The position numbers were made by a program, and so were the translations under genes. A stretch of 63,824 bases of DNA, counting the filler, from Acidimicrobiia bacterium (GTDB lineage Bacteria; Actinomycetota; Acidimicrobiia; Spongiisociales; SHLN01), in assembly GCA_041619515.1 (NCBI GenBank). It is 4 parts of 4 records of this genome, joined end to end, with 100 filler letters (N's around TTAATTAATTAA, not from the genome) between each part and the next. Parts side by side here need not be neighbours in the genome. Positions count along the whole stretch, not along the records: positions 16,880 to 33,319 come from JBFKDW010000070.1; 3 more parts are not named here. One strand, 5' to 3'. Under the pieces are notes generated by a model that worked only from the letters and a program-made list of their open reading frames with translations, made no database searches and was not told the origin of the DNA. Positions 16,780 to 49,921 of this stretch are shown piece by piece; positions within the stretch are counted from its first letter, which is position 1, and each line of letters starts with the position of its first letter.

Positions 16780-16879
16780 NNNNNNNNNNNNNNNNNNNNN
16801 NNNNNNNNNNNNNNNNNNNNNNNTTAATTAATTAANNNNNNNNNNNNNNNNNNNNNNNNNNNNNNNNNNNNNNNNNNNN
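16780..16879. other. Artificial contig linker
   Basis: N run flanking TTAATTAATTAA (stops in all six frames). Confidence 0.97.
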
Positions 16880-17063
16880 ACACGTCGGCCAAGCGGCCCG
16901 GCCGACAGATGGGAAAACCGATAAGCGCTTCGGTGCCGCATCCGACGTCCAGCCATCGTAGTCCCGGAGGAGCATCGAGACCCCTCACGAAATCCGATCC
17001 GAGCAGCCGGCTCCACCGGCCCATGAAGAGCTCATAGTCGCCGTCCCCATCCCAGCGATCCAT
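16880..17063 (-). CDS. Class I SAM-dependent methyltransferase, N-terminal fragment (truncated or degenerate)
   Basis: YELFMGRWSR...WLDVGCGT motif I; ends at the contig edge. Confidence 0.6.
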
Positions 17064-17195
17064 AGCCGGGCAGAGTAACCAGCGACAACCTCGCCCCACT
17101 ATTATCGGGCTGGCCTCGGCAGCCGGCTCAGACCGTCGATGACCAATCGGGCGGAGGGCGCGCCATGACTAGAGTCTCCGGATCGTGGGAGTGAT

Positions 17196-17693
17196 ATGAA
17201 GAGCATCGGATGGAAGGGCCTTGTCTGGCTCACCCTGCTGGTGCTGACGGTGACGGCCTGCCGCGGCGCCACCACTGAGACGACTGTCAGCGCAAATCAG
17301 GTGGTCGGAATCGACCTGTCCGGGCTCAGCTTTGACGTTCATCAGGAGCCCGGCTGAGGATGCTGCTCAGGGTGGGTCGGGTACCTGCAAGATCTCGGAG
17401 CAAGCGTCGATATCACTGAGGATCCTCAGCTGGCGGCATTCAAGGTGGAAAACGGCGTTCCGGAAGGGGCCGCCTCCTGCCACACCGCGCTGGTCGACGG
17501 ATACGTCATCGAAGGGCACGTGCCGGCGGGAGCGATCGTGCGGCTCCTCGACGAACGACCAAACGCCATCGGCCTCGCCCTCCCGGGTATGCCGGCAGAT
17601 TCACCGGGAATGGGTGGGACTCCCGAAACCTGGGAGGCACAACCCGTGGCTCTGATCGGGCCGAGCGGAGAGTTGATTCCTTTCGATTTCTGA
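17196..17693 (+). CDS. DUF411/CopG-like metal-binding lipoprotein with in-frame TGA (probable selenocysteine, codon 54)
   Basis: GGGAG RBS and ATG 17196; signal peptide with lipobox VTAC; HQEPG*GCCSGW...SCHTA...YVIEGHVP...LPGMPADSPGM in one frame; TGA at 17355-17357. Confidence 0.8.
17368..17387 (+). promoter_or_regulatory. Candidate bacterial SECIS hairpin
   Basis: CAGGGUG-GGUCGGG-UACCUG starts at +11 after the UGA; the loop begins with GG. Confidence 0.5.
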
Positions 17694-17752
17694 CACGCCC
17701 GCCCCCGGGGGTGGCCAACTCACGACCGCGCCGCCCGCGATACAGTCGGGGG

Positions 17753-19009
17753 ATGACAAGCACCGCTCCCATTCAATGGATACCGAACCCGCGCGCCCGC
17801 TCGGTCATCGACAGCAAAGCAGTTGCCGAGAACTTTCCGGAGGGGATTTTCGAGCAGACCCGGGCCTTTCACCGCCAGATCCCCGGCTACCGCGTTAGCC
17901 CCCTGCGGAGCCTTTCCCACCTCGCCGACATGATCGGAGTGGGGGGTATCTGGGTCAAGGACGAGTCGGCCAGGCTGAGCCTCAACTCCTTCAAGGTGCT
18001 GGGAGGCTCGTTCGCCATCTACCGCTTCATCAAACAGCAGCTCGGCACGGACGACGTGGCCCTCACGTTCTCCGAGCTGGTGTCCGACGAGACCCGTGCC
18101 AAGCTGGGAGACATCACCTTCGCCACCGCCACCGACGGCAACCATGGACGGGGAGTGGCCTGGGCCGCCCAGCAGCTCAACTGTCGAGCCGTCATCTACG
18201 TACACAAGGACACCTCGGTGGCTCGGATTCGCGCCATCGAGGGGTACGGCGCCGAAGTGCACATCGTCGACGGCACCTACGACGATGCGGTGCGTCGGGC
18301 GGGTGAGGAAGCCAACATCAACGGCTGGCAGGTCATCTCCGACACGTCGTGGGAGGGATACGAAGACATTCCTCGCTGGGTCATGCAGGGCTACACCACC
18401 ATGCTGTCCGAGACGCAGGAAGAACTGGCCGGGCAAGGGATCGTCAAGCCAACCCACGTGCTCGTGCAAGCCGGCGTGGGCGCCCTCGCCGCCTCGGTCA
18501 CCGGCTTCTACGCCAGCCGCTTCGGGGCCGACCGTCCCACCCATGTGGTTGTCGAGCCGGCCTCCGCCGACTGCCTGTATCGGTCGGCCCAAATCGCCGA
18601 CGGCTCGCCACACGCCGTCGACGGTGACCTGCAGACCATCATGGCCGGTCTTGCCTGCGGTGAGCCGAGCCCGATCGCCTGGAGCGTCCTGTGGGATACG
18701 GTCGACGCATTCGTTTCCTCACCCGACTACGTGGCTGCCAAGGGCATGCGGGTCTACGGAGTCCCGTTGGCGGGTGACCCCTTCATCGTGTCGGGCGAAT
18801 CCGGAGCGGTCACGCTGGGGGCTCTCACGTTCATCGCCGAGAACCCTGCCTTCGCAGATTTGAAGGAGTATCTCGGGCTGGGCGCCGACTCCCACGTCTT
18901 GCTCATCAACTCCGAGGGCAACACCGATCCGGACTATTTCCGACGGGTGGTATGGGAGGGTGCCGACAGCGTCCCGGAGGACTATCGCCGGTCGCTCGCT
19001 GCCGTCTAG
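17753..19009 (+). CDS. dpaL: Diaminopropionate ammonia-lyase
   Basis: VKDESAR, SFKVLGG (PLP Lys), ATDGNHGRG, ISDTSWEGY, QAGVG, MAGLACGE, SGESGA. Confidence 0.9.
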   Translation: MTSTAPIQWIPNPRARSVIDSKAVAENFPEGIFEQTRAFHRQIPGYRVSPLRSLSHLADMIGVGGIWVKDESARLSLNSFKVLGGSFAIYRFIKQQLGTDDVALTFSELVSDETRAKLGDITFATATDGNHGRGVAWAAQQLNCRAVIYVHKDTSVARIRAIEGYGAEVHIVDGTYDDAVRRAGEEANINGWQVISDTSWEGYEDIPRWVMQGYTTMLSETQEELAGQGIVKPTHVLVQAGVGALAASVTGFYASRFGADRPTHVVVEPASADCLYRSAQIADGSPHAVDGDLQTIMAGLACGEPSPIAWSVLWDTVDAFVSSPDYVAAKGMRVYGVPLAGDPFIVSGESGAVTLGALTFIAENPAFADLKEYLGLGADSHVLLINSEGNTDPDYFRRVVWEGADSVPEDYRRSLAAV

Positions 19010-19224
19010 CTGTCGCTCGAATCCGACGAGCTCGGGGAGCCGGACTCGGAACCGCTCGACGTGCCTCCGTCGGAGTCCGACGGCTCGGAGGCGCTGGACC
19101 GGCCGCCCGGCTCGCCGACCCCCCGGTAGACGTTGGTCTGCTTCTTGGCGAGTTTCTCATGGCGAGGGCAGGACCCGACCGATCCTGAGCGCCACTTCCC
19201 ATGGCAGTAGTGACTGGTGGCCAA
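19006..19224 (-). CDS. Small hypothetical protein
   Basis: AGGAG RBS before TTG; Cys/His-containing N-terminus and Ser/Gly-rich tail. Confidence 0.45.
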   Translation of the reverse strand: MATSHYCHGKWRSGSVGSCPRHEKLAKKQTNVYRGVGEPGGRSSASEPSDSDGGTSSGSESGSPSSSDSSDS

Positions 19225-19288
19225 CTCGTCTCTCCTGTGTCTAGCGCTCCGGCGGACTATTCAACCAGACCGGCGGCGCCGGTGTTCC

Positions 19289-20986
19289 TCAGCGCCGGTA
19301 CGGGATGACCTCGACCGTGCCGGCCGCACCCGCTACCACGAGCAGATCAGTGAACTCGGCGGCTTCGACCGCCGCCGCCACCGCGCCGGCATCAGCAACC
19401 TCGCCGTTCCCGTCCAGGCGGTGCAGGACGGTGATGCGGGCGCCGGTGAGCTCGCCCACCGCTCCTGCGAGGTGCTCACTTGCGGTAACGAGGACCACCT
19501 GCTTGCGGAGCGGCGCCACCGGCGCGTCCACCTGGCCCTCCCGCAGCACCAGGAGGTGATAGACGGCAACCGCCCCGACCGTGAACAGGAGGGCAACGGG
19601 GACCTGGATGTCGTTGCGGAGCCTCCCGCCCCCCTCCCCCAGCAGGTCGTTGAACACCGTGACCAGCAAGAAGATGAGGGACACGGCAGCCACCACGCCG
19701 CCGAGCCCGACGATCCCGAAGAGGTAGCTGCGCCTGGTCGGAGAAGACAACTCGTCGGCGGGGGCGGCCTTGGAGAAGCGGTTGATGCGCCACCAGGCCT
19801 GGCCCCACAGTGGGACGCCGACCGCCAGCAACGTCAGGGCACCCAGGAAGAATTCGATTTCCGACACCATGCTGTCCTCCGGGGGAAACACCACTTCCTG
19901 GAAGCCGATGACCAGGATGACGACGCCCACCATGGCGGTCACCAGCCCAACGGCTGCCAGCACGTAGTCGTACACCCGCTGGACTTCGGTGCGGTCACCG
20001 ACGAGCGGGCCGAGCACGCGCCGGTGGTAGAGCCAGACGGCTCCACCGATGACGAAGGCGGTCACGGCCGGAATGAAATCGGCAAAGTGCCGGACTGCAG
20101 ACGTGAATTGGGGGTCACCAAACCACCATTGCAGGACCGCGAACATGCTGACGCCGGCCCCGACGACGGCGGTGATCAGGCCTCCGAGGACGCCGACGAG
20201 GACCACGTACGAATGCCACAGCACGTCGCGCTTCTCGCGCACTCCGGTGATGACCCAGTGCCAGGCGAACACGGCCGCCCCCACCGTCAGCGCCACCACC
20301 CACGCTGCTACCTGAGCGTCCGTCTCCAGCCCGAGCTCAACCCGGCTGCCGGCATCCAGCAGCCTCTCGAAGATGTGGGTGAGCAGCGCTCCCCCGTAGC
20401 CGGCCATCACGCCGAGGCCGACGGTGGCTCCGAGGTAGACGTGCAGATTGGAAACACCGGAACGGTTGGTGCGCCACAGCCACCAGTGGCCAAGCCAAAT
20501 GAGAGACCACACGAGCAGGGACGCCGGCGCCAGCGCCGCAAACTCCGCGTCCCCAACCAGCCAGTTTCCGGTCACGATGGCCGTTACCACCACCACGGTC
20601 AGCGCGGTGATCAGGGCGAGATTCACATAGATGCTCCAGGCAGGCCCGTGTTCGGTAGTGTCGGAGAGCCCGCGCAACACCCAGCGCCCGAGGAAGAACA
20701 GGATCGGAACACCCACGATGGCCATGGCCAGCGGCTCTGCGGCCCGTTCGCCGCGGGCGACGGAGCCCTCGCTCAGCAAGGCGATGAGCCCGGCCACACC
20801 CCAGGCGGCCACATGGAGAGCCGCATAGAGGGAGCCGAACACCAGGAGGTGTTTCAGCGTCACCGGGGCGACCTCCGACGGCTTGTCCTGCCTGCGACCG
20901 GAAACTGCTTTGACGACGAAGACGATGATGCCGACCAGGATCAGCAACTGAACGAGTGAGGCCAGCAGGCCCAGAACAACCATCAC
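19289..20986 (-). CDS. Multi-pass membrane protein (DUF5671-like repeats)
   Basis: 565 aa with repeated YxYx...xGL TM pairs; GGGAG RBS. Confidence 0.7.
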   Translation of the reverse strand: MMVVLGLLASLVQLLILVGIIVFVVKAVSGRRQDKPSEVAPVTLKHLLVFGSLYAALHVAAWGVAGLIALLSEGSVARGERAAEPLAMAIVGVPILFFLGRWVLRGLSDTTEHGPAWSIYVNLALITALTVVVVTAIVTGNWLVGDAEFAALAPASLLVWSLIWLGHWWLWRTNRSGVSNLHVYLGATVGLGVMAGYGGALLTHIFERLLDAGSRVELGLETDAQVAAWVVALTVGAAVFAWHWVITGVREKRDVLWHSYVVLVGVLGGLITAVVGAGVSMFAVLQWWFGDPQFTSAVRHFADFIPAVTAFVIGGAVWLYHRRVLGPLVGDRTEVQRVYDYVLAAVGLVTAMVGVVILVIGFQEVVFPPEDSMVSEIEFFLGALTLLAVGVPLWGQAWWRINRFSKAAPADELSSPTRRSYLFGIVGLGGVVAAVSLIFLLVTVFNDLLGEGGGRLRNDIQVPVALLFTVGAVAVYHLLVLREGQVDAPVAPLRKQVVLVTASEHLAGAVGELTGARITVLHRLDGNGEVADAGAVAAAVEAAEFTDLLVVAGAAGTVEVIPYRR

Positions 20987-21132
20987 CAGCTCCCGGTTCT
21001 CACGATTTGTTTCATACCATCAGCATGGCGGCACCCGCCTGCTTTCACCATCGGGAACCTCCCGGATTCCCTCTCAGGGTGCCGACCACCAAGCGCCGTC
21101 CCCGCAGGCGCCCGGTCGCAGGCCGCATGTGG

Positions 21133-22824
21133 TCATTCGAGCAGGGCAACGACCGCCGAATAGCCGGCCAGGTCGGCGGCCAGCCAGCCGTCATCGCCGA
21201 TCGAGACCCGCGAGTCGGGATCGGTTGAGACCGCCGGGGCCCACCGTCCCCCGGTCGAAGGCTGGATCTTGACGGCCCGGTGCTCGACGGAGAGATTCAT
21301 CACAACCAGGGCCTCGTCGCCGGGCCCGCCCTCCCGCCAACGCCGGTAGGCGACCACCTTGCCGCCCTCGTCCAGCTCGGCCAGCTCGAATCCCGAACCA
21401 CGCAGGCCCACCGCTCCGGAGTCGCGGCCGGACCGCAACCGGACGAGGCGAAGGATGGTGTCGGCGTCGTCGTTGTCGGCTCCGGACCAATCCACCGGCG
21501 CATCGTCTCTGAAGTAATCCGACTCGAGCCACTCTTGCCCCTGGAACATCATCGGGACGCCCCTGGCGGTGAGGGCGGAGACAATGCCACACATGGCACG
21601 GCCCCGGGCGTACCAGGCGTCGGGATCCTCGCCGTCTATCTCCGACACCACCCTGGTTTGTCCATTCGCAACCTCATCGTGCGATTCGGTGTAGACCACC
21701 CGACCCCAGCCGTCGCGATGATCGGGCCCGGCAATGGCCGTCACCAGCGCTGTCATGTCCCGGTTCTGGTCGTCGGCCGCTTCGAGCAAGGACCGGACGG
21801 GATGCACGAACCCGGCGGACCACTGCAGATCAAAGCCGGCGCCGCCCTCGCCCACCGTCTTGGTGAGCCATTCGTTGCCCTGGAGGTCCTCTGCGATGAG
21901 GAGGCGACCGGGGAACTCGCCGTCCCGCATCTCCGAGATCTGTTGCATCACGAGCCAGCCGTCCGGGAGCTCCTCGGTGCCCTCGGCACCGCCCACCGTC
22001 CGCATATTGATGGTCGAATCGAGCCTGAGACCGTCGATGTGGTACTCACCGAACCACATGCGGGCGTTGTCGACGATGAAGTCTCGAACCTCGGGCCTCC
22101 CGTAGTCGGGTCGGGTGTGTCCCCAGGGTGTCACCGATCGGTGATCGTTGTAGAAATACACGCCCCCGCCGTCGCCCTCGTACCATCCGTCGAAGCGCCA
22201 CATGTCGAGGTCGCTCGGTCCGAAGTGGTTGTACACGACGTCGAGGATCACGGCGATGCCGCGCTCGTGGGCGGATCGAACCAGCCGCTTCAGGGCCTCC
22301 GGGCCCCCGTAGGCGGATTCGACCGCATACGGCAGCGCCGGGTTGTACCCCCAGGAGACGTCGCCGGCGAACTCACCAACCGGCATCAACTCGATGGCGG
22401 TGAACCCGCCTGCGGCAATGTGGTCGAGACGGGAGGCGACACCGTCGAGGTCGCCGCCGAAGGTACCGGTGTGCAGTTCGTAGATCACGAGCTCGTCTAC
22501 CGGCGGGGTGGCGAACGCGTCACCGTTCCAGTCGAACGACGGGTCGAGGACGACGGCCCGACCAACTGAGTTGGTCACCATCCGTGCTCGCGGATCGATC
22601 CGGTCAAAGGTCTCCTCGCCGCGCGTCACCGTGAACACGTATTCGAGTCCCGGGCCTCCGTCGAGGGCGCCCGACCATGTTCCGTCTTCGTTTCTCTCCA
22701 GCGGGAATTCTCCGTTCGACTCTCCGTTCGCGAGCGCAACGGACACCTGGTCGGCGTTGGGCGCCCACACCCGGAATCGGACTCGGCCGTCTTCGATTGA
22801 GCTGCCGAGAGGAATGTCGGTCAT
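21133..22824 (-). CDS. GH13 alpha-glucan enzyme with CBM48 (trehalohydrolase/branching enzyme-like)
   Basis: FRVWAPNA, IYELH, WGYNP, DVVYNH, DGLRLD, IAED, ESHDE. Confidence 0.88.
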   Translation of the reverse strand: MTDIPLGSSIEDGRVRFRVWAPNADQVSVALANGESNGEFPLERNEDGTWSGALDGGPGLEYVFTVTRGEETFDRIDPRARMVTNSVGRAVVLDPSFDWNGDAFATPPVDELVIYELHTGTFGGDLDGVASRLDHIAAGGFTAIELMPVGEFAGDVSWGYNPALPYAVESAYGGPEALKRLVRSAHERGIAVILDVVYNHFGPSDLDMWRFDGWYEGDGGGVYFYNDHRSVTPWGHTRPDYGRPEVRDFIVDNARMWFGEYHIDGLRLDSTINMRTVGGAEGTEELPDGWLVMQQISEMRDGEFPGRLLIAEDLQGNEWLTKTVGEGGAGFDLQWSAGFVHPVRSLLEAADDQNRDMTALVTAIAGPDHRDGWGRVVYTESHDEVANGQTRVVSEIDGEDPDAWYARGRAMCGIVSALTARGVPMMFQGQEWLESDYFRDDAPVDWSGADNDDADTILRLVRLRSGRDSGAVGLRGSGFELAELDEGGKVVAYRRWREGGPGDEALVVMNLSVEHRAVKIQPSTGGRWAPAVSTDPDSRVSIGDDGWLAADLAGYSAVVALLE

Positions 22825-22921
22825 CGTCTGTCTTCGCTTTCAGGAAGGGCGAGATGTCGCTCGCCTGGGATTGGCCGTTGTGGGGGGAACCGGTGCTGGT
22901 GATGAGGATCGTCCCCCGGGT

Positions 22922-22946
22922 GTACCCAAACGTCGGAGATTCAAAC
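22922..22946 (-). promoter_or_regulatory. SigF/SigB-type stress promoter
   Basis: GTTT-15 bp-GGGTAC upstream of the GH13 gene. Confidence 0.55.
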
Positions 22947-23003
22947 CTTCAACGGGAAGGTCGAGCCCCACAGCACGGACGTTGTCGGCCCTGCCCCGCC
23001 CGG

Positions 23004-24014
23004 CTACGAACCCGACCCTTCCTCGAGCTCGAGCTCGTTGCCCGACAGCACCCCATCTTGAAACGCCGCCAGGTTCTCCATCGTGGTCTCGGCGATGGCG
23101 GTGATGGCGTCGATGGTGAAGAAGCCCTGATGGCCGGTGATGATGACGTTGGGGAACGTCAGGAGCCGGGAGAACACGTCGTCGGTGATGATGCGATCCG
23201 ACAGGTTCTCGAAGAAGAGATCCCCCTCCTCCTCGTAGACGTCCAGGCCGAGGTAACCGACCTTGCCGGTCTTGAGCCCATCGATGACGGCCACCGTGTC
23301 GACGAGGGCTCCCCGGCTGGTGTTGACGATCATCACGCCGTCCCGCATCACCGATACCGTCTCGGCATTGATGAGGTGATGGGTCTCGGGAGTGAGCGGC
23401 GTGTGGAGGGTGACGATGTCGGCTGCCCCGAACAGGTCGGGCAAATCGACATACTGGACGCCCAGCTCGGTGCACACCGGGTTCGGATACGGATCGTGAG
23501 CAACGATTCGACAACCGAAGCCGGACATGATGACGGCGACCCGCTCGCCGATCTTGCCGGTCCCGACGATGCCGACCGTGCGGCCGTGCAGATCGAAGCC
23601 GAGCAGCCCGTCGAGGGCGAAGTTGCCGTCCCGCACCCGGGTGTAGGCCTTGTGAATCTGACGGTTGAGGGCCAGGATCATGGCCACCGTATGCTCGGCG
23701 ACGGCGTGCGGCGAGTAGGCGGGAACCCGGGCCACCGTGAACCCGAGCCGCCCCGCCGCTTCCAGGTCGACATGATTGAACCCCGCGCTGCGCAGGGCAA
23801 TGAACCGCACGCCGTGGGCTCGAAGGTCCTCCAGCACCGGGGCGCTGAGGTCGTCGTTGACGAAGGCGCACACCGCGTCGAAGCCCCCCGCCAGCTTGGC
23901 GGTCTCGAGCCGCAGCCGGGTCTCGAGAAACACGAGCTCGTGCCCGAAGGGCTCGTTGGCAGCCTCCAGGTATTGCTCGTCGTGCGGATGGGAGCTGAAG
24001 ACGGCGACTCGCAT
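23004..24014 (-). CDS. ldhA: D-lactate (2-hydroxyacid) dehydrogenase
   Basis: [44 protein letters not shown]. Confidence 0.85.
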
Positions 24015-24970
24015 CAGGTTCCTACACCTCGCATGGCGCCATCTTCGCCGATACGACCCTCGCTCGGCAAGGGCTGGCGAAACAGCCCGGGCGGAACGGG
24101 CGCTCCCACCCGGACCAGCGAAACATGCCAGGAGGGGGAGGACCCGAGCGCCCACCGAAGGGCACCGATCATCAGGCGTCCCGCCGCAATCGCTCCCGGA
24201 TAGGTGCGAATCCCGAGAATCGTGCGGACCCGGGGTGGCACCGTGGCGGCCGCTGCCATATACAGGAGCCGGTACGGGATCTTCACATGGAGCGGGAGCG
24301 GGGGGCTGCGCACGAAGCCGACCGCGTCGACCAGGCCGGGTGAGGGACCCAGCGCCGGATGGCCGGCAATCCAGTTCGCCAGCGAGGAGGCAGTGGCCGG
24401 GGTCGGGTCGGCCGCCAGCAAGCGACCGATCGCAGCCTGTTCGACGACGAAGCGATCCGCCTCGGCAGTGGTGAGCCGGCGGGGCCCGTAGAACTGGTAG
24501 GCCTGCAGGAACGAGTCGGTGAGGGCGTTGTGAACCCAGGCGGCGAGAGCCGGCGACCCGGCGCTGTAGGTCTCACCCCGATGGGATCGGCCCGTGACGG
24601 GACGGTGCGCCCGCCGCACCATTGCGACGGCCGCCTCGACTTCGGGCATGGCGCCGAACGAGGTGGCAGTCACGTAGGCCGAGGTGCGAGAGAGACGCCC
24701 GAGCGGGTCCTCCCGGTAGCGGGAGTGATCGGACACCCCCGCCACCACCTCGGGATGGGCCGCCTGGATGAGCAGCGCCCGTATGCCGCCGACGAAGGCG
24801 GAGGCGTCGCCGACCACCGGCCAGGTCACGGAGTCGGGACCGCACAAGCCCGGGTCGCCGGAGTAATCGAGGGTATGGGCGAGGGGATAGGGGGCATGGG
24901 CAAAGAGGTCGGTGGTGGAGTTGACGATCCGGTCTCGGTAGCGGTCCAGAATCTGCCGGAGGCGTCTCAT
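24014..24970 (-). CDS. Oxygenase MpaB/DUF2236 family protein
   Basis: [32 protein letters not shown]. Confidence 0.85.
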
Positions 24971-25788
24971 CTTCCCGCCCCCGCCGGCTGGCACGACGGG
25001 CACCACCAGATCCGCCGGTTGGCCATCTCCGCCATCGAGATCGGGGTTCTGCACCGCCGGCATCCCTCGCCGTGGCGCCCGTACACGTAGAGCCGCTCGT
25101 CCCGGGCCAGGTCGCTCCGGCGGCGAGCCCCGACATCGGCCGGGTCGACGGTGACGATGCGACCCGCCCGCACGCCTCGCTCCAGGAGATCCACGCTGGT
25201 CGACCAGATTTGCCGGGCGCGCTCATCTGAGAGCTCCCCGGCCGGGACGGATGGGTCGGTATGGGTCAGGAACAGCACTTCGGCTCGATACACGTTCCCC
25301 ACGCCCGCGATCACCCGCTGATCCAGGAGGGCTGCCCCGATGGAAATGCTGCGGCGGGAGAGGTTGGCGATGAACTCGTCCCGACGCCCGCCCCGGGATC
25401 CGTTCTGAAGCGGATCCGGCCCCAAGCGAGAGCGCAGGGCGTGTTCGACTGCCGGGTCGATGAGCTCACAGATGGTCGGGCCTGCCAGGTAGATCGTGGC
25501 ATCGTCGCCGGCCATCACCAGCCGGGTGGCCTCCGAAGGCGGCGGCGGATCTGCCCGGTGGGTACGGAACTTGCCGAAGAGCCCGAGGTGGACGTGCAGC
25601 GTCTCGCCCCCTTCCCAGCGGTAGAACAGGTGCTTGCCGTGGGCGTCGATGCCTTCCAGGGTGCGGCCCGTTAGGCGCCTGGCGCCGGCGGCGAACCGGC
25701 CCTGCGGCGAGGCCGTTGCGATCGACTGGCCGCCGAGGGCTGCCCAGTGCTTGCGGGCATAGCGGTGGATGGTATGGCCTTCTGGCAT
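24967..25788 (-). CDS. nei: Fpg/Nei family DNA glycosylase
   Basis: N-terminal MPEG, GKHL, HLGLFG, LLDQ..IAGVGNVY H2TH, CRRC...CPSCQ zinc finger. Confidence 0.9.
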   Translation of the reverse strand: MPEGHTIHRYARKHWAALGGQSIATASPQGRFAAGARRLTGRTLEGIDAHGKHLFYRWEGGETLHVHLGLFGKFRTHRADPPPPSEATRLVMAGDDATIYLAGPTICELIDPAVEHALRSRLGPDPLQNGSRGGRRDEFIANLSRRSISIGAALLDQRVIAGVGNVYRAEVLFLTHTDPSVPAGELSDERARQIWSTSVDLLERGVRAGRIVTVDPADVGARRRSDLARDERLYVYGRHGEGCRRCRTPISMAEMANRRIWWCPSCQPAGAGR

Positions 25789-25793
25789 GCGGA

Positions 25794-26528
25794 TCAGATA
25801 GTACGGGGCAACCCGATGCGAACGTCCACACCGGCCGAGTAGTGGACGAGCGGGTCGCCGGCAGGCTTTGTGTAGCCGGCGGCTTCAATCAGCTGGTCGT
25901 CGAGCTCGTCGATGGTTGCCCGCTCGAGTGGCCAGGGCGGATGGTCGACCGGGGCATAGGCAAGCCGGGAACGGAGCCGGGTGTAGAGACCCCAACGGGC
26001 CGTGAGAAAGTGTTCGAGGCCGCTCACCTCCGCGGAGGGTATCGGCTCACCTCTCCGGACGCGCACGGTGCTCGCTGCGCCCGGGCCCGGCCAGCGGCGC
26101 CGGGCCGTGTACGACACGACGGGGCCGTCACGGCGGATCGACATCTTCGACCACATGTACGGGAGGCGGTAGCTCAGCCGGGCGATCAGCACCGGGATCA
26201 GCCTGGTGACGTCGAGCGAGTCGAACCACACCCCCGGCCGGCCGTCGGGGCCGAGCACGTAGGTGCGGACGTTCGTCTCGGGGAACGAACCGAAATACGG
26301 GATGGCCGGGGTGCCCGGAACTCGGATGCGCTGCATGTCGAATGCCACCAGCCCCACCCACGCCTGCCCGTCGAACGTGTCGACTTCCAGTCCGGCCGGC
26401 AGCCGCCGTTGCACGCTGGCGGCATCGAAGGGCCAGTGAATGTAGGCGAGGTCCTTCCAGCCCTGCAGCATGACGGGCCGGTCGACCGATTCGAGCGGAG
26501 TTGGCGGATACCGCGGCGGGATGTCCAT
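25794..26528 (-). CDS. YqjF/DUF2071 family protein
   Basis: QGWKDLAYIHW, FPETNVRTYV, GVWFDSLD, FLTARW, HPPW. Confidence 0.88.
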   Translation of the reverse strand: MDIPPRYPPTPLESVDRPVMLQGWKDLAYIHWPFDAASVQRRLPAGLEVDTFDGQAWVGLVAFDMQRIRVPGTPAIPYFGSFPETNVRTYVLGPDGRPGVWFDSLDVTRLIPVLIARLSYRLPYMWSKMSIRRDGPVVSYTARRRWPGPGAASTVRVRRGEPIPSAEVSGLEHFLTARWGLYTRLRSRLAYAPVDHPPWPLERATIDELDDQLIEAAGYTKPAGDPLVHYSAGVDVRIGLPRTI

Positions 26529-26620
26529 CAAAGAGTGTTCGGAGGCGAACGAGCCGGGGGATGAAGAATCCCACCCGGGAGGCGGAATGGCTTCGTATGC
26601 CTCTTGAGACAGGAGATGAC

Positions 26621-27358
26621 ATGAACGAGCAGGTGTTTGTGATTCTGGGGGCAGGCGGGGGCATCGGTTCCGCCACGGCTCGGCTGCTGGCCGAACGAGG
26701 AGCCCGGCTGATCGTGGCCGGGCGCAGCCCGGAGAGGCTGGCCGCAATCGCCGGAGAGACCGGGGGAACTCCGGTTTCCCTGGATGCCACCGACACGTCG
26801 GCGGTCGCCGCCGCGGTCGAACAGGCGGTCACCGATTTCGGGCAAGTCGATGGCATCGCCAACTGCGTCGGCTCCCTCTTGTTGAAGCCGGCGCACATCA
26901 CCAGCGACGACGAGTGGGACGAGACCATCGCCATCAACCTCCGGTCGGCATTCGCTGCCGTCCGTGCCGGAGCGCGCGCCATGCGCGCCGGAGGCGGCTC
27001 CATCGTGCTGGTGTCTTCGGCCGCCGCCCAGCTGGGGCTCGCCAACCACGAAGCCATTGCAGCCGCCAAGGGTGGAATAAACGGTCTCACCCTGGCCGCG
27101 GCCGCCAGCTATGCATCGAGCGGCATCAGAGTGAACGCGGTCGCCCCCGGACTGGTGCGTACCCCGCTCACCGAGCGTCTCACCGCCAACGACAAGGCCG
27201 AGCAAGCTTCACTCTCCATGCACGCCCTGGGACGGCTTGGTGAGCCGAAAGACGTCGCCGCCGCCATCGTCTTCCTGCTCGATCCGGCCAACAGCTGGAT
27301 CACCGGCCAGGTCGTCGGTGTGGATGGCGGCCTGGGCACAATCAGGCCGCGCGGCTGA
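26621..27358 (+). CDS. SDR family oxidoreductase
   Basis: GAGGGIG, AIAAAKGG, IRVNAVAPG, SWITGQ; AGGAG RBS. Confidence 0.9.
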   Translation: MNEQVFVILGAGGGIGSATARLLAERGARLIVAGRSPERLAAIAGETGGTPVSLDATDTSAVAAAVEQAVTDFGQVDGIANCVGSLLLKPAHITSDDEWDETIAINLRSAFAAVRAGARAMRAGGGSIVLVSSAAAQLGLANHEAIAAAKGGINGLTLAAAASYASSGIRVNAVAPGLVRTPLTERLTANDKAEQASLSMHALGRLGEPKDVAAAIVFLLDPANSWITGQVVGVDGGLGTIRPRG

Positions 27359-27360
27359 CG

Positions 27361-27795
27361 GTGGACACAGTTCTGCTGGTCAACCTGGCCGCCACCTGGG
27401 CAATGGTGGGGCTCATATGGTTCGTGCAGCTGGTTCACTATCCCCTGTTCGGCGCGGTTGGAGCATCCGAATTCGTCTCCTACGAGGCCCAGCACACCCG
27501 CAGGACCGCCGGGGCGGTTGCTCTCTTTATGCCGCTGGAGGCCCTCACCGCGGCCTGGCTGGCGGTCGACACCCCCACAGGTGTGAGTCCCGGCCTGCTG
27601 TACGTTGGTCTCGGCCTAGTAGCGGCGCTGTGGGTGTCGACGGCGGCGTGGCAGGCGCCGATGCACGGCCGCCTCGTGCGAGGATACGATGGCCGGCTCC
27701 ACCGCCGGCTCGTCCTGTCAAACTGGATCCGCACCGGGGCCTGGTCGGCCCGGGGGCTCCTCGGACTGGTTCTGGTCGGCCAGGCATTGGCCTGA
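27361..27795 (+). CDS. Conserved membrane protein
   Basis: GLIWFVQLVHYPLF...NWIRT; four TM segments; coupled to the SDR gene. Confidence 0.75.
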   Translation: MDTVLLVNLAATWAMVGLIWFVQLVHYPLFGAVGASEFVSYEAQHTRRTAGAVALFMPLEALTAAWLAVDTPTGVSPGLLYVGLGLVAALWVSTAAWQAPMHGRLVRGYDGRLHRRLVLSNWIRTGAWSARGLLGLVLVGQALA

Positions 27796-27859
27796 GGGGT
27801 GCACCGGGTCCGGGCGCCCGCTGGCATTTCGCGGACGGGGCGCCGTAGCCTGCACCAGC

Positions 27860-29344
27860 GTGGAGACAGTCTGGGTCCTGGGAGACCAGCTCAATCGGCG
27901 AATAACCAGCCTGGCGGAGCGCACGCCGGAGGACACCCGGGTGCTCTTCGTCGAGAGCGCTGCCAAGCTCGGCTCAAAGCCGTACCATCGTCAGCGCCTC
28001 CACCTCGTCATCACCGCCATGCGGCGGTTCGCCGCCGAGCTCGAAGACGCCGGATTCGAAGTCGATCACCGCACCGAGGAGAGCTTCGCCGCCGGCCTGG
28101 CCGCCCACCGGGACGAGTTTGGGCCGGATTCGATCACCGCCATGGAGCCGATGTCCTACCGGATGCTGCAACGCTTGCCCGGGCTGGGTGTCACCGTTGT
28201 GCGCTCCAACCAGTTCTTGTGCCACTACGAAGATTTCGCCGCCTGGGCGGACGGGCGCAAGCGGCTGGTCATGGAGGATTTCTACCGCATGCAGCGGGAG
28301 CGGCTCGGCTACCTGATGGACGGGGACGAACCGTCGGGCGGAGAGTGGAACTTCGACGCCGACAACCGCCAGCCGCCCCCGAAGGACGGGCGGGCGTGGC
28401 CGACACCGGTCCGCAGCCGGCTCGACGACCTCGACAGGGAAGTGATCGGCGCATTGCCCGAGTCGGCGGTGGGTGCCGACCCCGACGGAACCTGGGCCAC
28501 GTCGCGCCGAGCCGCCCTCGCTCGCCTGCGCCACGTCGTCGACAACGTGCTCCCCATTTTCGGGCCTCACGAGGACGCCATGCTCACCGGCGAGTGGTCC
28601 ATGGGGCACACGCTGCTGAGCCCGTACCTCAACCTCGGCCTGCTCTATCCGGACGAAGTGTGCGATGCCGCCGAGGAGGCCTATCGGGAGGGCAGGATCC
28701 CGATTGCCTCGGCCGAGGGGTTCATCCGCCAGATCATCGGGTGGCGGGAGTATGTGTGGGGTACCTACTGGCTATGGATGCCCGGCTATGCCGGCGTAAA
28801 CGAGCTGGATGCCGGCCGCCCGCTGCCTCCGCTCTATCGCTCGGGCCGCACCGCTATGAACTGTGTGTCGGAGTCATTGGATTCGGTCGACCAGCATGCC
28901 TACGCCCACCATATCCAGCGCCTCATGGTGCTTGGCAACCTCGCGCTCCTGACCGGAGTCGTGCCCCAGCAGATGGTCGAATGGATGTGGGCGTCGTTCG
29001 TCGACGGTGCCGAGTGGGTGATGCTCCCCAACGTGCTCGGGATGGGGCTCTATGCGGACGGCGGCCGAATGGCGACCAAGCCCTATGCCGCAGGCGGCAA
29101 CTACATCAACCGGATGAGCGACTACTGCGGGGATTGTCGGTTCGATCCGAAGAAGCGAGTGGGGCCCGACGCCTGTCCCTTCACCACCCTGTACTGGCAT
29201 TTCCTCGACGGCGCCCGCGATGTGCTTGGCAGCAATCACCGGATGGGACGCCAGCTCCACGCACTCGACCGGCTCGGCGATCTCGAGGCGGTACTCGATC
29301 GTGCGTCGGAAGTGTTGGACCGGCTCGACGCCGGCGAGCTCTAG
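27860..29344 (+). CDS. FeS-cluster bacterial cryptochrome/(6-4) photolyase (PhrB-like)
   Basis: LGDQL, MEDFYR, GGEWNFDADNR, YAHHIQRLMVLGN, Cys in MNC/YCGDC/ACPF. Confidence 0.9.
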   Translation: METVWVLGDQLNRRITSLAERTPEDTRVLFVESAAKLGSKPYHRQRLHLVITAMRRFAAELEDAGFEVDHRTEESFAAGLAAHRDEFGPDSITAMEPMSYRMLQRLPGLGVTVVRSNQFLCHYEDFAAWADGRKRLVMEDFYRMQRERLGYLMDGDEPSGGEWNFDADNRQPPPKDGRAWPTPVRSRLDDLDREVIGALPESAVGADPDGTWATSRRAALARLRHVVDNVLPIFGPHEDAMLTGEWSMGHTLLSPYLNLGLLYPDEVCDAAEEAYREGRIPIASAEGFIRQIIGWREYVWGTYWLWMPGYAGVNELDAGRPLPPLYRSGRTAMNCVSESLDSVDQHAYAHHIQRLMVLGNLALLTGVVPQQMVEWMWASFVDGAEWVMLPNVLGMGLYADGGRMATKPYAAGGNYINRMSDYCGDCRFDPKKRVGPDACPFTTLYWHFLDGARDVLGSNHRMGRQLHALDRLGDLEAVLDRASEVLDRLDAGEL

Positions 29345-29526
29345 CCGGATTGCTTGGGAGCGAGGACCTCGGTGTTGCCCTCCATGATGATGTCGGGAGC
29401 ACCGGCAGCCGACGCCTGGTCGATGCGATAGAGCTCACTGAACCTCAGTGAGAGAAAGACGATCGTCGCCCACGTGAGGAAGATGAATATCACGGCCCCG
29501 ATCGAGAAGATCCATACGTCACTCAT
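29341..29526 (-). CDS. Small membrane protein
   Basis: 61 aa with one TM helix; ATGA overlap with the upstream gene; GGAGAGG RBS. Confidence 0.55.
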   Translation of the reverse strand: MSDVWIFSIGAVIFIFLTWATIVFLSLRFSELYRIDQASAAGAPDIIMEGNTEVLAPKQSG

Positions 29527-29747
29527 GAGCGGTCCTCTCCCACGAGGACAAGTGTTCCGAGAGAGTGAATCGCAGGCACCCACAGGCCGACGAACAGGCC
29601 GACCTCGCGGTCGACCAGGAACCACAGCGACACGGACAATACGAAGGACACGAACGCGGCGGCGAGAAAGGCCAGCTTGAGGCGATGGAATGAGGAAAGC
29701 ATCGACCAGATGCTCTTGTCGCCGGTCAGCGCAATGCGGTTGGTCAT
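29523..29747 (-). CDS. Small membrane protein (GLFVGLWVP motif)
   Basis: AAGGAG RBS; two TM helices. Confidence 0.65.
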   Translation of the reverse strand: MTNRIALTGDKSIWSMLSSFHRLKLAFLAAAFVSFVLSVSLWFLVDREVGLFVGLWVPAIHSLGTLVLVGEDRS

Positions 29748-29840
29748 GGTAAAACTCCTTTGCTTCTACAACACCTACGAGACCGCCCGCCGTCCCGGAT
29801 GACCGCTCGAGGATTGGAGGGCCGGGCAATCCGCCCGCCG

Positions 29841-30818
29841 TCAATCGTAGACGCCGGGGTTGGCACAGGCCCGGAGATGCTCCCCGCGCAGCCCAGCCAC
29901 CAGATTGTCGGCAGCAAGGTCGGCCATCGCCTCCCGGGTGCGACGACTGGAGCTGCCGAGATGCGGCAGGATGAAACAGTTGGGCAGCCCTACGAGTGGA
30001 TGGTCGGCCGGGATCGGCTCGGGGTCGGTCACGTCCAGCCCGGCCGCCGCGATCTCGCCCGACCTGAGTGCTGCGGCCAGAGCGTCGGAATCCACGGTTC
30101 CGCCTCGGGAGATATTCACGAGCGTGGCGGTCGGCTTCATCCGGCCGAGGGCACCGGCACCGATCAGGCCCGCCGTTTCGGGAGTCAGCGGCGTCGCTAC
30201 GACGACATGGTCGCTCTCGGACAGCAGGTCGTCGAGGTCACGGTAGAGGACCCCGATGTCGGCTTCCGCCTGCGGGTCCCGGTGACGGCTGAAATACAGG
30301 ACTCGCATCCCGAAACCGGCTCCCCGGCGAGCCACTGCGCGGCCGACCCGGCCGAGTCCGATGATGCCGAGGCTGGACGAGTGGATGTCATGGCCGAGCA
30401 GCAGCTCGGGTTCCCACCGTCGCCACCGTCCCGCCCGGACGTAGTCGCGCCCCTCTCCGAACCGCCGGGCTGCGGCCATGAGCAGTCCGAAGGCGGTGTC
30501 GGCGGTCGTTTCGGTCAGGACGTCGGGTGTATGCCCCACCGGAATGCCGCGGTCGGTGCAGGCTGCAAGGTCGATGTTGTCGACGCCGACGGCCATCGTG
30601 CTCACCACCCGCAAGTCGGGCGCCGCTTCCAGCAGGCCGGCGTCGACGGTGTCGGTGAGCATGCAGTAGAGGCCGGCCGCTGAGCGAAGCCGGCGCCGCA
30701 GCTCCTCGGCCGGGATGGGACGGTCTTCCTCCCACACCCACGCCTCGGACGCACCCGCAATCTTCTGGAGGGCGGCTCCTGGCGGACGCCGGGTGACGAC
30801 GGCTCGCAACCTGGTCAT
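29841..30818 (-). CDS. D-glycerate dehydrogenase/glyoxylate reductase
   Basis: AVGVDNID, TPDVLTETTAD, GLGRVG, NISRG, LDVTDPEP, PHLGS. Confidence 0.88.
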   Translation of the reverse strand: MTRLRAVVTRRPPGAALQKIAGASEAWVWEEDRPIPAEELRRRLRSAAGLYCMLTDTVDAGLLEAAPDLRVVSTMAVGVDNIDLAACTDRGIPVGHTPDVLTETTADTAFGLLMAAARRFGEGRDYVRAGRWRRWEPELLLGHDIHSSSLGIIGLGRVGRAVARRGAGFGMRVLYFSRHRDPQAEADIGVLYRDLDDLLSESDHVVVATPLTPETAGLIGAGALGRMKPTATLVNISRGGTVDSDALAAALRSGEIAAAGLDVTDPEPIPADHPLVGLPNCFILPHLGSSSRRTREAMADLAADNLVAGLRGEHLRACANPGVYD

Positions 30819-30857
30819 GGTGCCATTCTTCCAGCCCGCCGACCCAAGCCCGCCCGG

Positions 30858-32084
30858 CTAGCGCACCGCCGCCATGCGAGAGATCGTTCCGGTCAGCGAT
30901 ACCACCAGGACGCTGCCGTCGGCGTCGACCCCGAAGCTGCTGATGGACGGGACCCCGGTGAGCAGCTCGGCCTCGCCCACGGCCACCCCGTCCTGGTAGA
31001 AGAACCCGCGCACGAACCCGGTGCAGAAGTCGCCGTAGATGTAGAAGCCGTCCAGCTCGGGAATCGCCGGGTCGTGCATCACGACTCCGCCGGTGATCGA
31101 GCAACCGTCGGCGTGGGTGTACTCGGCCACCGGCTCCAGCAACCCGGTACGGTCGCAGCCGGCATCGGCGAAGCATTCTGTTCCCTCCAGGACTGACCAG
31201 CCGAAGTTGGGCGGCTGCCCGGGTTGCACCGTGCCGATATCTACGACCGTGACTTCTTCGATCCTTCTCTGGCCGACGTCGGCGACATACAACAGGTCGC
31301 CGTCGAAGCTGTATCGCCACGGGTTGCGAAGCCCATAGGCGAACGTCAGCGGGTCACCGGCCTCTTCGCCGATCGGGTTGTCCGATGGGATGGTGTAGGC
31401 CAGGGCGTTCGAGGCCCGGGGATCGAGCCGGAGCATCGAGCCGAGGCGAGTGAAAGGATCCTGACCGGTTCCGAACCGGTCGTCGGAGCCTCCCCCGTCG
31501 CCCATGCCAACGTACAGCAAGCCGTCTGGCCCAAACGCCAGGTTGCCCCCGTTGTGATTTCCGGCCGGCTGGTCGATCTCGAGCAGAACCCGCTCGGTGC
31601 CTGGATCCAGCGTGCCCTCGAGCCTTTGGAACTCCGACACGACGGTGTCCCCGCCGGTGTCGGTGTAGTTGACGTACCAGAGGTCTGGATCGTCTGGGTG
31701 GAAAGCGAGCCCGAGCAGCCCCTGCTCGTTGCCTCCCGACCCCACCCGGGCATCGATGTCGAGCCGGGCGCTTCCGTCGATCCCGAGGATGCGGCCTCGC
31801 CGCTCCACCACGAGCAGCTCCCCGGTGCCGGGATCAACGCCGGCCCAGACGGGTTGCTCGAATCCGTCCGCCACCGGCTCCAGCACCACTCCCTGCAGCG
31901 GGGGGAGGGCGGTTGTGGTCGTCGTCGCTTGCGGGGTCGCCGACGACGTGGACGAAGCAGGAGTCGAGGTCGAGGTCGAGGTCGACGGCACGGACGGGAG
32001 GCTCGTAGAGGTGGCGGACTCGCCGCCGCCACAGGACGCACCGACCAGAGCGAGCACGATCGAAATGAGAGCAGCTCGTCGCAT
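30858..32084 (-). CDS. PQQ-dependent sugar dehydrogenase family lipoprotein
   Basis: Lipobox GASC, Ser/Thr linker, NHNGGNLAFGPDG, GLRNPW, DVGQ. Confidence 0.85.
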   Translation of the reverse strand: MRRAALISIVLALVGASCGGGESATSTSLPSVPSTSTSTSTPASSTSSATPQATTTTTALPPLQGVVLEPVADGFEQPVWAGVDPGTGELLVVERRGRILGIDGSARLDIDARVGSGGNEQGLLGLAFHPDDPDLWYVNYTDTGGDTVVSEFQRLEGTLDPGTERVLLEIDQPAGNHNGGNLAFGPDGLLYVGMGDGGGSDDRFGTGQDPFTRLGSMLRLDPRASNALAYTIPSDNPIGEEAGDPLTFAYGLRNPWRYSFDGDLLYVADVGQRRIEEVTVVDIGTVQPGQPPNFGWSVLEGTECFADAGCDRTGLLEPVAEYTHADGCSITGGVVMHDPAIPELDGFYIYGDFCTGFVRGFFYQDGVAVGEAELLTGVPSISSFGVDADGSVLVVSLTGTISRMAAVR

Positions 32085-32184
32085 GGGTCGCGAGGCTATC
32101 GGGCGGGTGGCGGTAGCGGGTCATGTGAGCCGAGCCCGGGCCCGGGTCTGCGAGGACCCTGCAAAACCCCTACGCTCTCTGACC

Positions 32185-33319
32185 GTGACGTATCGGCCGG
32201 CATACGAGGGCATCGACGAAACTGAATATCAGCGCCGGATTCGCGCCTGGACACTGTACGACTGGGCCAATTCGGCGTTCGCTACCACCATCCTCGCCGC
32301 CGTGCTTCCCATCTACTACAGCCAGGTGGCGGGGAACACGCTTCCCAGTGCGGCGGTTGCCACCGCCTATTGGACCGCCGGCCTCAGCCTGGCGCTCTTC
32401 ATCGTTGCAATCATCTCCCCCATCCTCGGCACCATCTCCGACATCCGGCGCGGCAAGAAGAAATTCTTGGCCATCTCCGTCGGTGTCGGCGTCGTCGCCA
32501 CCGGGCTGCTGGTGCTGGTCGGCTCGGGGGATTGGCTGCTTGCCTCCATGCTGTTCATTGTCGGCCGGGTCGGATTCGGGGCGGCCAACGTCTTCTACGA
32601 CTCTCTCCTTCCCCATGTCGCCCGCGCCGAGGACCAGGACAGGGTCTCCGCCCGCGGCTACGCAGTCGGATACCTCGGAGGTGGGCTGCTCCTCGCCGTC
32701 AACGCCGCCATGATCTTCGTGATCGGTCCCGAAGGCGGTGCCCGGCTCTCCTTCCTGTCGGTGGCGGTGTGGTGGGCGGTGTTCTCGATTCCACTCCTGC
32801 GGCGGGTGCCCGAGCCCCCGGCGGCCACGGAGGACCTCGCCGAAGGCGAATCGGTCTTGCGGGTGAGCTTCGGGCGCTTGAAGGACACACTGGCGCATAT
32901 CCGCCGCTTCCGGCAGCTGTTTCGCTTTCTCATCGCCTTCCTCATCTACAACGACGGGATCGGCACCATCATCGGTGTAGCTGCCATCTACGGGGCCGAG
33001 CTCGGATTCGGTGCCACGGAGCTCATCCTGGCGCTGCTGCTCGTGCAGTTCGTCGGCATCCCCTTCGCGCTGATCTTCGGGCGAATACCCGATCCCACTG
33101 AGGAACGCCGGCGGGCCTTTCTCGCCTTCATCGTGTTCAACCTGCTGGCGCTCCCGCTGGTCGGCATCGTCGGCGCCCGGGTACTCGACGCCGATACCGT
33201 CGGACGGCCCGGAGCCCCCTTCGAGACCTCGGGCCAGTTTCTCGGCGAGGGCGAGTACGGGCTGGATAGCTTCGCAGTGCTCCCTCCCACCGGGGCCTGG
33301 GAGCTCCGAACCGAGGACG
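32185..33319 (+). CDS. MFS transporter (UMF1/ATG22-like), 3' truncated
   Basis: [34 protein letters not shown]. Confidence 0.85.
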
Positions 33320-33419
33320 NNNNNNNNNNNNNNNNNNNNNNNNNNNNNNNNNNNNNNNNNNNNTTAATTAATTAANNNNNNNNNNNNNNNNNNNNNNNNN
33401 NNNNNNNNNNNNNNNNNNN
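33320..33419. other. Artificial contig linker
   Basis: N run flanking TTAATTAATTAA. Confidence 0.97.
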
Positions 33420-49821: not shown

Positions 49822-49921
49822 NNNNNNNNNNNNNNNNNNNNNNNNNNNNNNNNNNNNNNNNNNNNTTAATTAATTAANNNNNNNNNNNNNNNNNNNNNNN
49901 NNNNNNNNNNNNNNNNNNNNN
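49822..49921. other. Artificial contig linker
   Basis: N run flanking TTAATTAATTAA. Confidence 0.97.

Follow-up and report, generated by a model that had tools for sequence, protein, structure and literature searches.

The reading frame at positions 17196-17693 in a draft genome of Acidimicrobiia bacterium (GCA_041619515.1) very probably encodes a CopG/DUF411 lipoprotein in which an in-frame UGA is recoded as selenocysteine (Sec, U54), probably under the direction of a downstream hairpin, and which would act in copper redox chemistry or as a copper chaperone. On the sequence evidence, the selenocysteine reading of the TGA is strongly supported. CopG/DUF411 is a new entry in the selenoproteome rather than a new mechanism.

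The window, meaning the whole stretch of 63,824 nucleotides that was analysed, joins contigs C69, C70, C71 and C77 of a 146-contig draft, separated by N spacers at 16780-16879, 33320-33419 and 49822-49921. Features across a spacer, such as those of C69 before C70, are not known to be genomic neighbours. The gene lies on C70 (JBFKDW010000070.1, window 16880-33319), 316 bases from the contig start. Its DUF411/CopG reading frame holds 165 codons and a terminal stop, and the TGA at codon 54 (17355-17357) is the only internal stop. An earlier note on this DNA had proposed a frame that opens with ATG 17196 after GGGAG and is interrupted by that single TGA, and direct translation bears this out; the 165-residue read-through product, with the motifs G-U-G-C-C-S-G-W, SCHT, EGHVP and PGMPADSPGM, is likewise as predicted. 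ORF calling lists only a 53-residue head (17196-17357) and an 82-residue tail (17445-17693), which matches the truncated view reported earlier for the tail and adds the head. Table 1 gives the features of the gene.

Table 1. Features of the Sec-form DUF411/CopG gene, in window positions
Feature	Position	Strand	Evidence or remark
Shine-Dalgarno-like site GGGAG	17187..17191	+	4 nt 5' of the ATG; seen in the sequence
Full gene, Sec at codon 54	17196..17693	+	Translation; Pfam DUF411; PDB 6WIS, E 1.8e-24
Predicted signal peptide ending in lipobox V-T-A-C (Cys22 = 17259-17261)	17196..17261	+	Pattern evidence only
In-frame TGA, read as selenocysteine U54	17355..17357	+	Column conservation; Cys homologues; independent contig
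U-G-C-C motif, counterpart of CopG CxCC, also readable as UxxC	17355..17366	+	Alignment to 6WIS
Extended stem-loop bearing the apical hairpin	17359..17408	+	Lower stem GAUGCUGCUC with GAGC-AAGCGUC; predicted structure only
Candidate SECIS apical hairpin	17372..17388	+	6-bp stem, 5-nt loop CGGGU, 14 nt after the UGA
Pfam DUF411 core, residues 93-139 (SCHT, EGHVP, PGMPADSPGM)	17472..17612	+	Pfam match
Terminal TGA, ordinary stop	17691..17693	+	Seen in the sequence

Family, fold and location of the protein

Membership of the DUF411/CopG family, as the earlier note had recognized, is established by both sequence and fold. Pfam DUF411 (PF04214) matches residues 93-139 with an E-value of 1.2e-25 and a score of 89.4 bits against a cut-off of 27, and the PDB sequence match to CopG of Pseudomonas aeruginosa (6WIS/6WJE) spans residues 44-142 with an E-value of 1.8e-24. 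In the alignment to 6WIS, U54-G-C56-C57 stands opposite the C-G-C-C of CopG and codon 54 opposite its first Cys, as had been claimed for the TGA. An AlphaFold2 model, built on an alignment of homologues with Cys in place of Sec, has a pLDDT of 85.7, with residues 1-40 disordered. The top five PDB matches found by Foldseek are all CopG chains (6WIS/6WJE; target-normalised TM 0.80-0.82, E 2.6e-12), with 37-39% identity, and the glutaredoxin and thioredoxin matches are weak, with E-values of 0.015 and above. Sec54 sits in the model in the loop between the strand at 45-50 and the helix at 58-66, which is the CxxC position of the thioredoxin fold, so that U-G-C-C can also be read as UxxC.

The protein and 41 Cys-form homologues (42 sequences) share a set of invariant residues that includes C22, G53, position 54 (Cys in the homologues, the Sec column), C56, C57, W60, Y63, S94-C95-H96, E106-P110 with H108, M132 and M139. 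The N-terminus is hydrophobic and carries the lipobox VTAC, a sequence pattern that points to an extracytoplasmic location. The lipobox pattern is found in 22 of 22 Sec loci, about 30-45 residues before the Sec (in L015 and L031 the pattern matched an earlier site). Together with the invariant Cys22, this agrees with the exported, lipid-anchored protein predicted earlier. The nearest relatives are named Acidimicrobiia and Ilumatobacteraceae, in line with the actinobacterial host given there.

The accessible part of a review (PMC7558416) describes CopG as a periplasmic, thioredoxin-like protein with a part in copper resistance, in which CxCC and two Met residues bind a tetranuclear copper cluster. 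Its biochemical role is put forward there only as a proposal, namely Cu(I) oxidation and the hand-over of copper to cuproproteins.

The TGA column and the selenocysteine machinery

The in-frame TGA is conserved. Across the class, 22 loci in 20 genomes have it in one column, at 49-75% identity, and codons read directly from these loci give the pattern xG-U-[G/S]-C-C-x-x-W. A six-frame search of 60 relatives returned 12 matches over the column in 11 genomes, the source genome included, and each of the 12 has exactly one TGA. Even sampling of 401 class genomes gave 20 matches over the column; 18 of them, in 16 genomes, have the TGA and the other two have TGT (L024, 68% identity; L034, 41% identity). 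These column counts leave out L036 (G264, 33% identity), L038 (a second match in G346) and the partial loci L058 and L059. Among the best 80 named loci, 11 carry TGA, 67 a Cys codon (TGC or TGT) and two no motif; one named locus, L075, is identical to L037 in the compared stretch. The 11 TGA loci come from MAGs of Acidimicrobiia or Ilumatobacteraceae and from three MAGs of other phyla, one each labelled Vicinamibacterales, Candidatus Binatia and Candidatus Rokubacteria. Seven DUF411 matches, none with an in-frame stop, come from a set of 400 further genomes in the phylum of the source genome; TGC or TGT was read in five, and the other two are partial. Position 54 is Cys in all 41 full-length Cys-form homologues (alignment A2). 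As judged from these aligned codons, the codon-54 TGA across CopG/DUF411 is a genuine Sec/Cys pair. The outcome the earlier note had named as fatal to its reading, a TGA confined to this genome, is contradicted by the 20 class genomes and the other phyla, and its question of whether homologues have TGA or Cys at this column is answered with both. The same 22 Sec-form genes use TGA as their terminal stop in 17 cases, so TGA is not reassigned in these organisms.

Two further DUF411 arrangements were seen in the class. G004, of the same genus, has two Sec-form paralogues on the minus strand of one contig, 2.5 kb apart (L039:5758-6096 and L039:8304-8642). In G029, a second DUF411 match (L023, G029:C19:58718-58945) covers residues 90-165 only. 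It lacks an in-frame signal peptide and CxCC region and probably represents a fragment of a gene.

The TGA is also present in assemblies of other sequencing runs. Logan contigs of runs X1 and X2, a possible source of the genome, and of X5, from another study, show no differences over 17100-17378 or 17100-17390, which speaks to the concern about sequencing error raised earlier. The Logan contigs of four runs all break within 17361-17390, a segment that overlaps the invariant hairpin; the likely cause is branching of the assembly graph where co-occurring relatives share this stretch.

A protein database search gave 3654 matches. The best 120 consist of 53 full-length sequences with Cys, 66 stubs of at most 112 residues and one odd record (P0061). 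The stubs begin just after the motif and have neither the signal peptide nor the metal motif; some come from Acidimicrobiia MAGs and stand in NCBI as 'DUF411 domain-containing protein', and the start sites of the stubs vary among homologues (MYLQ.., MDLTED.., MQDLG..). A quick, poorly resolved tree of 148 rows and 104 columns places all stubs among confirmed Sec forms, with Cys forms nested among them. On this tree, the Cys form P0025 is sister to L028 with a support of 100, and the Cys label requires at least seven changes, two of them forced by well-supported branches. This pattern suggests repeated switching between Sec and Cys, in a direction that is not proved.

The source genome has the machinery to read UGA as Sec. 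All of selA, selB, tRNA-SeC and a Sec-type selD, for which the earlier note had advised a search, are present: selA and selB are adjacent on contig C59, ARAGORN finds one tRNA-SeC with anticodon tca on C51, and the selD gene on C8 itself contains an in-frame TGA, in a classic G-S-G-U-A-C-K site (G000:C8:27334-28263, L009; outside the window). A formate dehydrogenase (fdh)-like molybdoenzyme gene on C4 likewise has an in-frame TGA, in N-R-T-U-H-A-P-S (G000:C4:57739-58179, L061; outside the window). The search for selB, selC and selD covered the source genome, and that for SelA was wider. SelA is found in 282 of the 401 class-sample genomes, a tally that includes the unpublished G249, G310, G418 and G286, none of which has the gene or enters any other result. 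All 16 Sec-form genomes of that sample have SelA, as do five of five further ones, three of them from other phyla, giving 21 of 21 Sec-form genomes checked; this count leaves out four Sec-form genomes found only among the 60 relatives. In one Sec-form MAG, SelA is in two adjacent pieces (G800:C13:106140-107205), through either a frameshift or an assembly error.

The downstream hairpin and rival readings of the TGA

The bacterial SECIS (bSECIS) model has an apical loop of 3-9 nt on a stem of 4-16 bp, a G in the first two loop positions, a distance of 16-37 nt from UGA to loop and a minimum free energy (MFE) of -7.5 kcal/mol or lower (PMC13188914). The 17-nt hairpin listed in Table 1, GUGGGU-CGGGU-ACCUGC, has a G in the second loop position and a UGA-to-loop distance of 20 nt, and fits the loop, stem, loop-G and spacing criteria. 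The same geometry occurs in 18 of the 22 class Sec loci and in all eight Acidimicrobiia-type named loci. In L019, L020, L029 and L033 the hairpin is absent and other hairpins are anchored on the same Trp codon.

Constraint at the RNA level is evident in a synonymous-site test of 21 Sec genes. Codon entropy is zero at three hairpin codons counted from the UGA: +7 (Val, GTC in 17 of 17), +8 (Gly, GGG in 13 of 13) and +9 (Tyr, TAC in 21 of 21). A second conserved Tyr, at codon +49, is split between TAC (11) and TAT (10), and entropy at other four-fold sites is about 1.3-1.9 bits. A comparison of the hairpin codons with the 79 remaining eligible columns gives a p-value of 0.0007, and the three lowest-entropy columns among 58 four- and six-fold ones are +7, +8 and +17. 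Where the single variable hairpin codon changes (Leu, CTG or CTA), the pair with U is kept. Across 32 distinct Sec sequences, each of the six core pairs is held in 27-32, and pairing in the given register reaches 76.6% of cells versus at most 60% when the register is slid. Covariation exceeds that of all 500 shuffles; double-sided changes are few (three pairs, eight cells) because both arms encode conserved residues.

Sec forms of other phyla have hairpins at the same place after the UGA. In Binatia it is UGGGUG-GGU-CACCUG (6 bp), and in Vicinamibacterales UGGGAUG-GGUCUUG-CAUCUCA (7 bp). The Rokubacteria hairpin, GGCGUGGGUG-GGG-CACCUGCGCC, has 10 bp and a predicted energy of -15.6 kcal/mol, with a G-C pair where Acidimicrobiia have an unpaired C and U. 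A 17-nt hairpin likewise follows the UGA in two other genes of the source genome: in selD it lies 26 nt downstream and has the loop GGUCC, and in the fdh-like gene it lies 12 nt downstream and has the loop GGUCU.

The predicted energies are modest. Taken alone, the hairpin ranges from -4.1 to -8.4 kcal/mol, and only one of the 22 loci reaches -7.5. Compared with other stretches of these genes, the 42 nt after the UGA do not stand out in stability (mean z +0.63), nor do they differ in this from seven Cys forms (p 0.39). In the source gene, the unconstrained optimum of -20.0 kcal/mol has a different tip, enforcing the hairpin gives -18.8 kcal/mol, and the pair probability of the hairpin in the ensemble is 0.11-0.15. 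The energy criterion of the bSECIS model is reached only by the extended structure (17359..17408, -18.8 kcal/mol). RNAalifold on 21 Sec loci gave no convincing consensus structure. A stem across the UGA was also considered and was dropped because the RNAalifold result, a structure of only six pairs enclosing the UGA, contains no double-sided change. Rfam, searched at a permissive E-value, yielded no more than an lncRNA match attributable to chance (E 0.24); its coverage of bacterial SECIS elements is poor. Judged by codon constraint and pairing, SECIS function of the hairpin is likely.

Other explanations of the interrupted frame were weighed against recoding. A recent pseudogene derived from a Cys-form copG would need only one TGC/TGT-to-TGA change, and pipelines do treat the gene as truncated, as evidenced by the 66 stubs. 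However, a TGA kept in one column at 49-75% identity and in other phyla, between flanks that are open and conserved on both sides and behind a lipobox in every Sec locus, leaves a nonsense mutation with a negligible probability, as independent decay would not preserve one codon. An error of sequencing or assembly is an obvious concern for a gene near a contig end in a 146-contig MAG, yet it has become scarcely credible, given that the Logan contigs of X1, X2 and X5 agree without a difference and that independent assemblies of 19 other genomes have the same codon.

Two remaining alternatives accept the codon and dispute its product. Read-through of the UGA by near-cognate Trp, Cys or Arg insertion, or by local reassignment, gains some room from a site whose chemistry is deduced from sequence and from a hairpin that is thermodynamically unremarkable. 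Against it stand SelA in all 21 Sec-form genomes checked, a site that is an invariant Cys in homologues and thus a classic Sec/Cys pair, the use of TGA as terminal stop in 17 of 22 of the same genes, and constraint on the RNA at just the place where the bSECIS model puts the loop; non-Sec read-through is very unlikely. Production of two polypeptides, a 53-residue lipopeptide and a separately started C-terminal domain of about 82-104 residues, would agree with the start codons that gene callers find after the TGA, but the stub starts differ between homologues, the stub has neither the signal peptide nor the CxCC that the family needs, and the conserved motif spans the TGA, making this outcome highly improbable.

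Copper context, significance and known systems

Gene neighbourhoods of about 6 kb on each side were compared for 14 loci by searching 112 ORFs against Pfam; 13 were usable, with L050, a U-S-C-C variant, left out. In five of the 13, the gene adjoins copper or cuproenzyme genes. In L046, a multicopper oxidase gene is directly upstream and MerR and P-type ATPase genes directly downstream, with a TrwC relaxase gene nearby. L048 has SCO1/SenC directly upstream and two P-type ATPases and ArsR flanking, L047 has COX1 and a P-type ATPase, L040 a cupredoxin/COX2-like protein, and L044 multihaem cytochromes c, cytochrome b and a Rieske protein. No copper genes were found in the remaining eight neighbourhoods or on C70, where the neighbours of the gene (a PALP enzyme, an alpha-amylase/CBM48 protein, MpaB/Lcp, a Fapy glycosylase and DUF2071) say nothing on function.

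The copper island with the Sec-form copy in L046 (L046:4366-12162) belongs to a complete genome of the class, and the TrwC relaxase beside it hints at carriage on a mobile element. Two genomes have a heliorhodopsin gene near the Sec-form gene, immediately adjacent in one and at a distance of about 3 kb in the other (L049:6607-7383 and L044:2478-3233). In L043, the next gene downstream of the Sec form (L043:5408-5827, minus strand) encodes a DUF1573 lipoprotein. Catalogued selenoproteins include the DUF1573 family, with a UGC motif; the L043 neighbour was ruled out as a second selenoprotein, being a Cys form (S-C-G-C).

In the proposed mechanism, SelA, SelB, tRNA-Sec and SelD would recode the UGA at 17355-17357, probably directed by the small hairpin that begins 14 nt downstream and is seated on the longer stem. 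The mature product of the 165-codon gene would be tethered by a lipid anchor to the outer face of the membrane and would adopt a thioredoxin-like fold with a selenolate at the CxxC position. By analogy with CopG, it may bind copper through Sec/Cys, His and Met residues, and it could function as a copper redox protein or chaperone that serves copper export and cuproenzymes, with selenium presumably contributing to that role.

A further-reaching interpretation that joins copper and selenium is tentative and, taken as a whole, falls somewhat short of probable. Sec54 would ligate a multinuclear copper cluster directly and so form the first natural copper-selenolate site. The Sec form would prevail in CopG of Acidimicrobiia (18 of 20 full-length class-sample genes) and, together with a co-evolving SECIS hairpin of its own, recur in no fewer than three other phyla. 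Selenium would then tune Cu(I)/Cu(II) redox or transfer for respiratory and multicopper oxidases at the outer membrane face. If this is true, there is a selenium-dependent branch of copper homeostasis that annotation has concealed by truncating every such gene to a stub.

With 119 entries in the 2026 catalogue, selenoprotein families are not numerous, and each new one marks a place where organisms bear the cost of selenium in place of sulphur. Sec in a motif described as the holder of a copper cluster would tie selenium use to copper homeostasis and offer a putative natural Cu-Se site for bioinorganic study. There is also a practical consequence. Dozens of database entries for CopG/DUF411 are stubs of 95-112 residues without the signal peptide and metal motif, so annotation, metaproteomic searches and trait inference are wrong at this gene. 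The error touches abundant aquatic and soil Acidimicrobiia and would be mended by a dedicated model with a Sec column.

The earlier note did not place the family on the common selenoprotein lists, and the catalogue, BSepDB, deep-Sep and NCBIfam searches uphold this. A full-text literature search found no paper that pairs DUF411 with selenoprotein. Judged by titles and the openings of abstracts, the literature on CopG, selenocysteine and copper held nothing relevant, and among the matches listed for DUF411, many of them to DUF411x names, no title concerns selenium. The main text of the 2026 catalogue of 119 prokaryotic selenoprotein families (PMC13188914) has no DUF411, CopG, PF04214, UxCC or UGCC; the family is absent from the main text and one supplement of BSepDB (PMC13326102) and was not found in the accessible part of the deep-Sep paper (PMC12013277). 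NCBIfam release 20 gave no selenoprotein model at E <= 0.01, including the unnamed 'GOS_B/GOS_C' models, and one unrelated sub-threshold match. A preprint on Actinomarina, from another order of Acidimicrobiia, reports in its accessible part 69 mostly unnamed deep-Sep families, and its main text has no DUF411, CopG or copper. Within the class sample, none of the 65 genomes of family f16 (~1-Mb genomes) has a DUF411 match.

The known systems closest to this gene each share part of its design. As in bSECIS elements of the E. coli fdhF type, a stem-loop directly follows the UGA, and its loop at 20 nt is within the 16-37 range. The fdhF SECIS loop is GGUC, whereas that of the present gene is CGGGU, and at 21 of the 22 loci the isolated hairpin falls short of -7.5 kcal/mol. 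Thioredoxin-fold UxxC selenoproteins (Trx, Grx, DsbA-like and thiol:disulfide interchange proteins, as given in the accessible part of PMC13188914) share with the present protein a Sec where the first helix begins, paired with a Cys at the third residue after it (here U54 and C57), and Cys-form homologues are common. Unlike them, the U-G-C-C motif has an extra Cys, and its CopG counterpart is described, in the accessible part of PMC7558416, as holding a tetranuclear copper cluster rather than acting as a simple dithiol/disulfide couple. Predicted selenoproteins related to metals include, in the accessible part of the catalogue, a CopZ-family (2Fe-2S)-binding protein, the SO_0444 Cu/Zn efflux transporter, a YHS-domain protein, an E1-E2 cation ATPase and a MerT-like protein (PMC13188914). 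They resemble the present protein in placing Sec at a metal-ligand Cys and in handling soft metals; they differ in fold and family, and none is DUF411/PF04214.

The nearest counterpart is CopG of P. aeruginosa. It belongs to the same Pfam family and has the same predicted fold, and the CxCC, SCHT, EGHVP and PGMPxxSPGM blocks align. In the present protein, however, the first Cys of CxCC is Sec, its chemical analogue, about 30 additional linker residues follow the lipobox, and many copies have no copper genes nearby. CopG is a soluble periplasmic protein of a Gram-negative bacterium, whereas the present protein is a predicted lipoprotein of Acidimicrobiia; both are extracytoplasmic, the latter as judged from its N-terminal pattern. 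The linkage to multicopper oxidase and P-type ATPase genes in some Sec-form genomes parallels that described for copG in the accessible part of PMC7558416.
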